Positions 33,935-36,278 of a DNA stretch of 64,000 nt are shown here, one piece after another; position 1 is the stretch's first letter, and every line of letters starts with the position of its first letter. The translations under genes and the position numbers were made by a program. Source of the stretch: Candidatus Kaiserbacteria bacterium (GTDB lineage: Bacteria; Patescibacteriota; Minisyncoccia; Phycocordibacterales; Phycocordibacteraceae). The notes beneath the pieces are model-generated. The model was not told the DNA's origin and did no database searches. It saw only the letters and a program-made list of their open reading frames with translations. Location: positions 142,720 through 206,719 of the forward strand of contig JAHFMN010000002.1 in assembly GCA_023264445.1 (NCBI GenBank), in the 5' to 3' direction.

Positions 33935-34536
33935 ATATGAGATCCTTCACTACCAAGCGCAGTACCGGATTTACTCTTGTTGAGACACTTGTCGCAGTTG
34001 CCATCATAACGCTAGCGGTCTCAGGACCTCTGTTTATGGCGAGCCGTGCTGTCGTCGCTACACAGATCGCACGCGATCAACTCACCGCCTCCTATCTCGC
34101 GCAGGAAGGTATTGAATACGTACGTGCCATGCGCGATGCAGAATTTCTTGCCGCCTTTCAGGCAGGCGCCGCAGGAATATCGACCACTGCATGGAACAAT
34201 TTCCTTAGCAATCCGGTAAGCAGCGATTCCGCGACGATTTCCGGCTGCAAGGCATCAACGTGCACCCTTGATCCTTCGCCGGACGTGCAGATGGGGACAG
34301 GCGTTGGTTTGTCGCTTCAGCCCTGCACCACTACTTGTACGCCGCTCTACTTGGTAAACGGCTTCTACACGCAGCAGAGCGATGTGAATGGAGCGGTAGC
34401 GACGCCGTTTACACGCACGGTCCAAGCATTTGATGCGGCTGCAAACGATGAGCGCATCGTCTCAAAAGTAACGTGGAATTTCCACGGTACGCCGTACACG
34501 GTGACGGTCACCGACCACCTTTCACCATGGCAATAA
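33931..34536 (+). CDS. minor pilin / pseudopilin
   Basis: Leader ...RSTG|FTLVETLVAVAIITLAV with Glu+5. Confidence 0.6.
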   Translation: MNMRSFTTKRSTGFTLVETLVAVAIITLAVSGPLFMASRAVVATQIARDQLTASYLAQEGIEYVRAMRDAEFLAAFQAGAAGISTTAWNNFLSNPVSSDSATISGCKASTCTLDPSPDVQMGTGVGLSLQPCTTTCTPLYLVNGFYTQQSDVNGAVATPFTRTVQAFDAAANDERIVSKVTWNFHGTPYTVTVTDHLSPWQ

Positions 34537-36278
34537 ATCTTCCATCTTCTCGCTCGCGAGGATTCGCGCTCCTCATCGCCATCATTTTTATGTCGGTGAT
34601 GCTTTCCTTCGGCCTCTCACTTGGATCGCTCGCATATAAACAGCAGGTGTTGGCTTCTTCAGCTATCGGTTCACAGTATGCGTTCTATGCTGCCGATGCC
34701 GCGCTTGAGTGCGCGCTCTATGCTGACCAGCAGCAGAATCTCTTTGCCTACACCTCCAATATGTCCGCACCGGCTCCGGCGGTGACGTGCGATGCGGCAG
34801 CGCCCGTCTCCGCTACGGTCGTCTCCCATACCCCGAACCGATGGGTCATTTCCAATCGTTTCTCGCTCGATGCGGGCGCGCGCTGCGCGGATGTGACCAT
34901 CTACAAGCCGTCGGTGACTTCGGATTCAACCTTCCTTTTCTCCCAGGGGTACGATGCGTCCTGCGCGACGGTGGCGAATCCGGCCGGCGCGCGCTTCTCT
35001 TCTCGCGGCATGCAAGTACATTATGGAGCAGTTTCTGCTCCCGGCATGTGTGGCAGCGCAAACGGTGCAACGGTTCCGACTGCGCCGAGCACGAACTTGT
35101 GCATTCCTGAATCTGGCGCGTCGTTTGTCGCCGGAAATGGTCCCTGGACCTGGTCCTGCGCTGGTACGAGCAGAGGCCCTACCGCGTATTGTTCTGCAAA
35201 CCTCGCCACCACCTATGACGGCCAGTGTGCGCTGTCTCACTATAACTGTTCACTCGGCTCGAGTATCAATAATGTCAGTTCACAAAATAACTGGACGTGG
35301 ACGTGCACCGGAACTGGCGGCGGCGCGGCAGTCGGCTGTTCGGAGGTAAAGGTTCTGGCTGGCGTTTGTTCGCCGAATCACTATTCATGCGATGTTGGCT
35401 CGAGCGCATCACACCAAAGTAATTCAGACTTCTGGACGTGGACCTGTCGAGGACAAAACGGCGGTCTGGATACTTCGTGTTCGGAATCGAGAGCGGTAAA
35501 CGGCGTATGCGATGCGACGCACTACAACTGTACTGCCGGCTCGAGTACAAATAACTCGAGTAATCAGTCAAACTGGACATGGTCATGCGCCGGACAAAAT
35601 GGCGGAACCACGGCCGCGTGCTCGGAAACGAAGGTTATCGGTTCATCGTGGACTGCCCGTACCGGTGCCGCAAGTAATAGCTGGAACTCCGTCACCTACG
35701 GCAACGGCATCTTTGCCGCCGTCGCTTCTTCTGGCAGCGGCAATCGCGTCATGACCTCTCCTGACGGCACCACGTGGACCTCTCGTTCAAGTGCCGCCAA
35801 CAATAGATGGAACTCCGTCACCTACGGCAATGGTACCTTCGTTGCGGTCTCCGAAGACGACAGCGGCGCCGGCAATCGCGTCATGACCTCACCTGACGGC
35901 ACCACGTGGACTGCCCGTACCGGTGCCGCAAACAATAGCTGGACTTCCGTCGCTTATGGCAACGGCACCTTCGTTGCAGTGTCGTCCGATGGAAGCAATC
36001 GCGTCATGACCTCTCCTGACGGCACCACGTGGACCTCTCGTTCAAGTGCCGCCAACAATAGCTGGACTTCCGTCGCTTATGGTTTGAGTCTCTTTGTCGC
36101 GGTCGCTGACTCTGGCAATGGCAATCGCGTCATGACCTCTCCTGACGGAACCACCTGGACTAGTCAGTCGAGCGCTGCAGATAATAGATGGAACTCCGTC
36201 ACCTACGGCAATGGCACCTTCGTTGCGGTCTCCGAAGACGACAGCGGCGTCGGCAATCGCGTCATGACCTCGCTCTAG
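34527..36278 (+). CDS. GspK/PilX-like large minor pseudopilin with four Cys-rich modules and a C-terminal tandem beta-propeller (Asp-box/BNR-like) repeat domain; putative pilus-tip adhesin
   Basis: Leader ...SRSRG|FALLIAIIF lacks Glu+5, a GspK hallmark. Four ~45-aa C-x-HYNC-x-GSS-x-WTW-x-C-x-GG-x-CSE modules. Five to six ~42-aa repeats carry [13 protein letters not shown] (SxDGxTW Asp-box-like) and [11 protein letters not shown] motifs. Confidence 0.6.
35640..36270 (+). repeat. about five tandem 123-132-bp coding repeats with near-identical DNA copies inside the pseudopilin gene
   Basis: caatcgcgtcatgacctc... recurs at 35741, 35873, 35996, 36122 and 36254. 66-75-nt blocks are identical or near-identical between non-adjacent copies. 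Confidence 0.75.

Follow-up and report, generated by a model that had tools for sequence, protein, structure and literature searches.

The gene at 34527..36278 on the forward strand of the window, the 64,000-nucleotide stretch of Candidatus Kaiserbacteria DNA analysed here, codes for a modular PilX-type minor pilin of 583 amino acids. It combines a short pilin core with four cysteine-rich modules, a putative stalk, and a predicted C-terminal beta-propeller, and it is most likely an adhesin displayed at the tip of a retractile T4aP-like pilus, a reading that we regard as probable rather than secure. The gene is a single ORF, 583 uninterrupted codons followed by a stop; the frame runs on without a shift from the pilin part into the repeats, so the two belong to one gene and not, as the sequence-only reading had kept in mind, to two ORFs. 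The gene, which starts with the ATG at 34527, overlaps the end of the minor-pilin gene before it by 10 nt, and the orthologs too start with 'MAI...'. A longer GTG start at 34473 was rejected, since it falls inside the upstream gene and the orthologs begin at the 'MAI' equivalent. The product is outsized, as had been claimed: the other pilins of the operon have 147–221 aa. Independent gene calling on contigs of 212,811 and 9,517 bases, from two further metagenome assemblies, gave an identical 583-aa product, the source window being a third copy; the organism, an uncultivated ultrasmall Kaiserbacteria-like bacterium, is known solely from metagenome assemblies. The G+C content and GC3 are even across the pilin core, the Cys region, and the propeller, and a recent foreign insertion was rejected on this ground. 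A scan for promoters and terminators gave nothing beyond the shuffled expectation, the interval between the gene and ligA included.

The gene is the last of four minor-pilin genes that follow pilD in a pilus operon, all of whose genes lie on the forward strand. The assembly and retraction machinery occupies 24212..31408 and comprises pilM, two genes in the pilN/pilO position, a small ORF, pilB, a response regulator gene, pilT, and pilC, as recognised with NCBIfam and Pfam; PilM and PilT score above the profile cut-offs (PilT with 426.6 bits vs 319.1). It is followed by the major pilin gene at 31454..31936 (N_methyl 39.4 bits, GspG-/ComGC-like N-terminus), for which the starts 31454 and 31493 are both possible, and by the gene of the prepilin peptidase PilD at 32041..32808 (Pfam A24_N_bact). 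Profile matches characterise the first upstream minor pilin (32772..33437) as GspH-like and the second (33434..33934) as having a GspJ/ComGE-like N-terminus; the third (33931..34536) is PilV/GspI-like, with an N_methyl match above the cut-off and weak PilV/GspI matches below theirs. All three have Glu5. Downstream, 23 nt past the stop of the 583-aa pilin gene, lies ligA (36302..38299, identified by its Pfam domains), which is not a part of the pilus system. The locus had been described as a competence-type T4P cluster with comFC adjacent. A comF-family gene is indeed located divergently upstream of pilM, albeit with a score below the cut-off (TIGR00201, 80 bits), but the machinery, with PilM, PilO, PilB, PilC, and PilT, looks T4aP-like and not Com-type.

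The 583-aa pilin starts with a predicted class III (prepilin-type) leader, residues 1–12 (34527..34562), which is short and polar, ends in Gly12, and precedes a hydrophobic segment of ca. 20 residues. G12 and F13 are invariant among 24 and among 65 aligned family members, and the cleavage by PilD would be expected before Phe13. The mature position +5 is occupied by Ile and not Glu, in agreement with the sequence-only reading, whereas Glu5 is present in the major pilin and in each of the three minor pilins upstream, whose sequence at this site reads G, then (F/Y)TL(I/V)E. Likewise, N_methyl (PF07963/TIGR02532) finds no match in the 583-aa pilin at E<=1, while the other four pilins of the operon match it. 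The protein occupies the 'K' position, being the last of the four co-operonic minor pilins, the sole one lacking Glu5, and the largest. The capping subunit is a known exception that lacks Glu5 (PMC9934059).

The pilin core, residues 13–166 (34563..35024), consists of the alpha1 helix without Glu5 and a five-stranded antiparallel sheet; the 60-residue helix and the sheet are modelled with pLDDT >90, as expected of a pilin fold, and four Cys (62, 88, 120, and 146) are invariant. In structure comparison the core resembles subunits of tip complexes best; a search of PDB sequences with the pilin-family profile returned chance matches only. PilX_N (PF14341) matches the 583-aa pilin weakly (12.2 bits, E = 0.18; gathering score 25.5 bits) and 17 of the 24 family members weakly at E<=1 (best 1.1e-3), the orthologs in loci L020 and L064 reaching 31.2 bits, above the 25.5-bit cut-off, and 23.7 bits, respectively. 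At its core the protein appears to be a PilX_N-like small minor pilin. The absence of Glu5 had been called a GspK/PilX hallmark, of which the K/PilX position stands and the GspK identity does not: the protein is not a GspK-family member because its core is small (ca. 154 aa), carries no alpha-domain insertion, and is not matched by GspK profiles. In GspK (ETEC GspK, PDB 3CI0) an alpha-helical domain is inserted within the pilin beta-sheet, whereas the core of the 583-aa pilin has no such interruption and its additional mass follows at the C-terminus.

The first part of this addition, residues 173–372, consists of four homologous modules, each with exactly four Cys and a WxWxC motif. Module 1 (residues 173–231, 35043..35219) is of a long 'CGxxNG...LC...WxWxC...C' type, and modules 2–4 (residues 232–278, 279–325, and 326–372, together 35220..35642) of a short 'C..HY.C...WTW.C.G.NGG....C' type, mutually identical in 20–26 of 47 residues. 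All the Cys of modules 2–4 are invariant across the aligned homologous segments from other proteins; the invariance is claimed for these three modules, as most rows of the module 1 alignment are the query's own sequence. Homologues of module 1 are present in seven proteins (P0241–P0244, P0317, P0352, and P0390), of which P0352 is a canonical prepilin carrying Cys modules. An exhaustive HMMER search found 1795 representative clusters of the Cys-module family at E<=1e-3, vs four proteins obtained with the Cys region in a word-indexed search, and no Pfam family covers the 4-Cys module. The count of four disulfide-type modules given earlier is thus correct as to the modules and their four Cys apiece, and each module would probably form two disulfides. 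The protein was modelled as two separate pieces, not full-length, and the Cys region, modelled without alignment depth, has pLDDT <50, for which reason the disulfides and the stalk role of these modules are a matter of conjecture.

The C-terminus, residues 373–583 (35643..36275), is confidently predicted by AF2 to be a five-bladed beta-propeller. Its blades 1–5 correspond to repeats at 35649–35774, 35775–35906, 35907–36029, 36030–36155, and 36156–36275, each coding for 40–44 aa with pairwise identity of 26–36 of ca. 42 residues; TRF describes a period of 126 nt in 4.5 copies with 74% matches and a score of 547. Five to six repeats of ca. 42 aa had been read from the sequence, and the repeat length is confirmed while the number is five, not six. 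The AF2 model of this region (pLDDT 93.2, pTM 0.90) contains five sets of beta-strands, with four strands in blades 1–4 and three detected in blade 5. Foldseek matches it to Kelch-type and Ycf48 propellers with E from 6e-10 to 1e-7, Ycf48 (E 3.6e-8, TMq 0.61) being among the best structural matches, as the sequence-only reading had guessed. The search for a BNR/Ycf48-like propeller, proposed with the sequence-only reading, succeeded in its Ycf48-like half; BNR families give no match to the 583-aa pilin at E<=1, and the S-P-D-G-T-T-W connector, present four times, lacks the residue that separates D from G in the Asp-box S-x-D-x-G-x-T-W. Pfam EPTP (PF03736) is matched faintly, with 31.9 bits for the whole protein vs the 21-bit cut-off and with no single repeat passing it, and in place of seven EPTP blades there are five repeats and five modelled blades. 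Neither RCC1 nor the PilY1/Neisseria_PilC profiles of Pfam match the 583-aa pilin, which, moreover, has a pilin N-terminus. A truncated propeller with further blades downstream was rejected: ligA begins 23 nt past the stop, and the last repeat ends with ...NRVMTSL*, the same end point as in homologous C-terminal propellers, which end at '...NRVMTS'.

The ca. 42-aa repeat, 'W..SV.YGNG.FVAV...NRVMTS.DG..W', is also found in phage tail-fibre and secreted proteins (for example P0012, P0006, P0042, P0016, and P0288), to which residues 373–583 show 57–72% identity over the five blades. It is located there beside phage tail-fibre anchors or an endosialidase-chaperone domain, or else in secreted proteins that also contain FN3, Big_2, or a T9SS sorting domain, placements typical of receptor-binding domains. 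In these proteins, as in the 583-aa pilin, the module lies outside the cell, at or close to an end of the chain; they differ from it in their non-pilin anchors and in the number of blades, which is usually seven (in 89 of the 138 repeat runs of the family). Cys modules and propeller repeats occur together also in two signal-peptide proteins, P0288 and P0379. The 583-aa pilin itself has no match in PHROGs, and a full-length search of a 5.8-billion-cluster collection found no other protein with the whole architecture, the next match being propeller-only; its 90%-identity cluster has a single member.

The comparison of homologous loci, another proposed check, covered about 150 syntenic loci of related Patescibacteria, from genomes and metagenomes, and 120 of the 815 matches to the pilin core. 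It revealed a short conserved ortholog and an extension specific to one lineage. The order pilC, major pilin, pilD, mp1, mp2, mp3, pilX-like, ligA is conserved in essentially all 80 genome loci, and in 79 of them pilX-like is followed by ligA, so that in the relatives, too, this gene closes the minor-pilin sub-operon. With its conserved position, ligA marks the 3' limit at which the extension was inserted. The orthologs typically have ca. 160 aa and end at the equivalent of Y166 in 75 of the 79 genome loci and 70 of the 76 metagenome loci. The Cys-module/propeller extension is present in none of the ca. 150 syntenic relatives; about 7% of the loci carry a different C-terminal module and about 93% no extension, and because most relatives manage with the short form, the extension is dispensable for pilus function as such. 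The modules of the long orthologs, ALK/LTK glycine-rich, F5/8 type C discoidin (68.9 bits), SPRY (54 bits), and NBR1-Ig-like, sit at the same junction as the extension described here. Since other binding modules are carried there, the junction after the core is a recurrent grafting point. With a core complete at residue 166, followed by Cys modules and a propeller repeat that are common in non-pilin proteins, the 583-aa protein has the make-up by which modular pilins are defined (PMC8179133), an N-terminal pilin module followed by at least one C-terminal domain that is not particular to T4P biology.

In the HIJK model, the subunit lacking Glu5 caps the filament. The 583-aa pilin may accordingly be pictured as follows. 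PilD would remove the 12-residue leader, and the processed subunit would enter a priming complex with the three minor pilins that have Glu5, where, owing to the absence of Glu5, it would take the very top of the filament. In this lineage a 417-aa cassette was added to the C-terminus of the core; its four Cys modules (residues 173–372) would serve as an extracellular spacer or stalk projecting the five-bladed propeller beyond the pilus tip. Most likely, the propeller binds to something exposed on another cell or on a surface, a glycan or an envelope component being the most plausible ligand. With the pilus retracted by PilT, the bacterium would be drawn up to its target.

The sequence-only reading had left open whether the tip is an adhesin or a DNA receptor, and the adhesin is the better reading of the two. 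Minor pilins of the ComZ or ComP type capture DNA at the tip, and a module capturing extracellular DNA for transformation, with retraction delivering it to an uptake machinery, would suit the comF-family gene upstream of pilM and the dependence of Patescibacteria on scavenged nucleic acids that is generally assumed; in TM7x, DNA uptake was suggested by its authors for a different pilus system (PMC11623550). The extension is, however, acidic, with a net charge of −4 in the Cys region and −2 in the propeller, pI 4.9–5.3, and not one Lys among the 211 propeller residues, and DNA binding is disfavoured on that account. Known DNA-binding pilins use Lys/Arg-rich patches. Moreover, the propeller repeat is shared with phage tail fibres and adhesin-like secreted proteins, the relatives' modules at the junction (discoidin, SPRY, glycine-rich) are of glycan- or protein-binding types, the locus is kept without any extension by the large majority of relatives, and pilin mutants of the TM7x T4P-2 system show no competence defect (PMC11623550). 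A DNA receptor is thus improbable.

A protein anchored in the cell surface outside the filament, its helix serving as a membrane anchor or in a short pseudopilus, is slightly less improbable, yet still unlikely. Its stalk and propeller could capture nutrients or polysaccharides, mediate cell–cell contact, or act as a decoy for phage receptor-binding proteins. It would account for the failure of Pfam to detect an N_methyl or PilD-type motif in the 583-aa pilin, for the occurrence of Cys modules and propeller in ordinary secreted proteins, and it has a counterpart in TM7x, whose PilX1 and PilX2 are likewise not predicted PilD substrates (PMC11623550). Against it speak the invariance of G12/F13 at the expected cleavage site, the gene's unvarying place as the fourth minor-pilin gene in relatives, translationally coupled to the third through the 10-nt overlap, and the closeness of the core fold to tip-complex subunits; the missing Glu5, in turn, is what is expected of a capping subunit (PMC9934059). 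That the architecture is an artefact, a normal 166-aa pilin gene having been joined by chimeric assembly or sequencing error to an ORF that lies downstream and is unrelated to it, is very improbable. The orthologs do nearly always stop at Y166, and neither the full-length search of the 5.8-billion-cluster collection nor the 90%-identity cluster yielded a second protein of this architecture, but the identical product in two other assemblies argues against such an error, as does the frame, open for 417 codons through two repeat families to a natural domain end. The contig, in addition, is collinear on both sides, because ligA follows the stop as in relatives; GC and GC3 do not change along the gene, and other lineages have independent extensions at the very same junction.

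The tip adhesin, as the favoured reading, has precedents, and the earlier impression that the architecture is unlike any described system does not hold for its type. Modular pilins have been described as widespread, with >1,200 proteins in 264 architectures, including those of Patescibacteria with many repeated modules (Raynaud et al. 2021, PMC8179133), and are adhesins most probably shown at the pilus tip (PMC8179133; Shahin et al. 2023, PMC9934059). Those of Streptococcus sanguinis, PilB with a vWA and PilC with a lectin module, are, like the 583-aa pilin, small pilins with a short linker and bulky C-terminal binding modules, encoded in a minor-pilin operon and proposed to be tip adhesins. 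PilB and PilC, however, have Glu5 and canonical signal peptides, while the carrier here lacks Glu5, and the grafted modules differ from theirs, being a 4-Cys repeat and a five-bladed EPTP/Ycf48-like propeller. The survey of modular pilins started from IPR012902 (PMC8179133), and pilins of the present type would escape it because, having no N_methyl, they do not match this entry. PilY1/PilC of diderm T4aP are likewise adhesins with a propeller that the minor-pilin complex presents at the tip; PilY1, however, is a non-pilin that joins the tip non-covalently, via a C-terminal seven-bladed propeller, whereas the propeller here would be covalently a part of the capping pilin.

A close counterpart is PilX2 of Nanosynbacter lyticus TM7x, a minor pilin with a C-terminal seven-bladed propeller and a non-canonical signal peptide, whose deletion halves host binding, pili being kept and competence unaffected (PMC11623550). 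PilX2 and PilX1 share with the 583-aa pilin their origin in Patescibacteria, the non-canonical signal peptide, and the rank of the largest minor pilin of the locus; PilX2 shares also the C-terminal beta-propeller, and its role in host binding is the function proposed here. The PilX2 propeller is reported to have seven blades with RCC1 repeats, in contrast to the five EPTP/Ycf48-like blades here, and no Cys-rich spacer modules have been reported for PilX2, vs four in the 583-aa pilin. No new principle is involved, since the literature already contains modular tip pilins and a PilX with a propeller; what is new is the particular combination of modules and its grafting onto an otherwise short conserved ortholog.

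Most Patescibacteria have not been cultivated, and host recognition in this group is an open problem; to our knowledge, experimental pilus studies among them concern Saccharibacteria only. It is conceivable, and we put it forward tentatively, that the capping pilin of a Kaiserbacteria-like lineage captured a receptor-binding cassette of the phage-tail-fibre type, consisting of a 4-Cys stalk and a propeller reduced from seven to five blades in a closed ring. If so, the 583-aa pilin would be a host-recognition determinant of an uncultivated episymbiont, and the sporadic, mutually exclusive modules of the relatives (glycine-rich, discoidin, SPRY, and NBR1-Ig) would represent a swappable 'host-range cassette' system at a pilus tip that is otherwise conserved, much as phages exchange their receptor-binding proteins; expression of such modules would then offer a way of finding the hosts or ligands of Patescibacteria. 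Residues 167–583 or 373–583 are concrete expressible candidates for identifying a ligand or host. The subunit lacking Glu5, strongly conserved in pili of the Kaiserbacteria/Paceibacteria type, emerges as the grafting point at which binding modules vary by lineage. Two widespread extracellular building blocks with poor or absent annotation deserve notice as well, the 4-Cys family of about 1,800 representative clusters and the ca. 42-aa propeller repeat shared with phage tail fibres.

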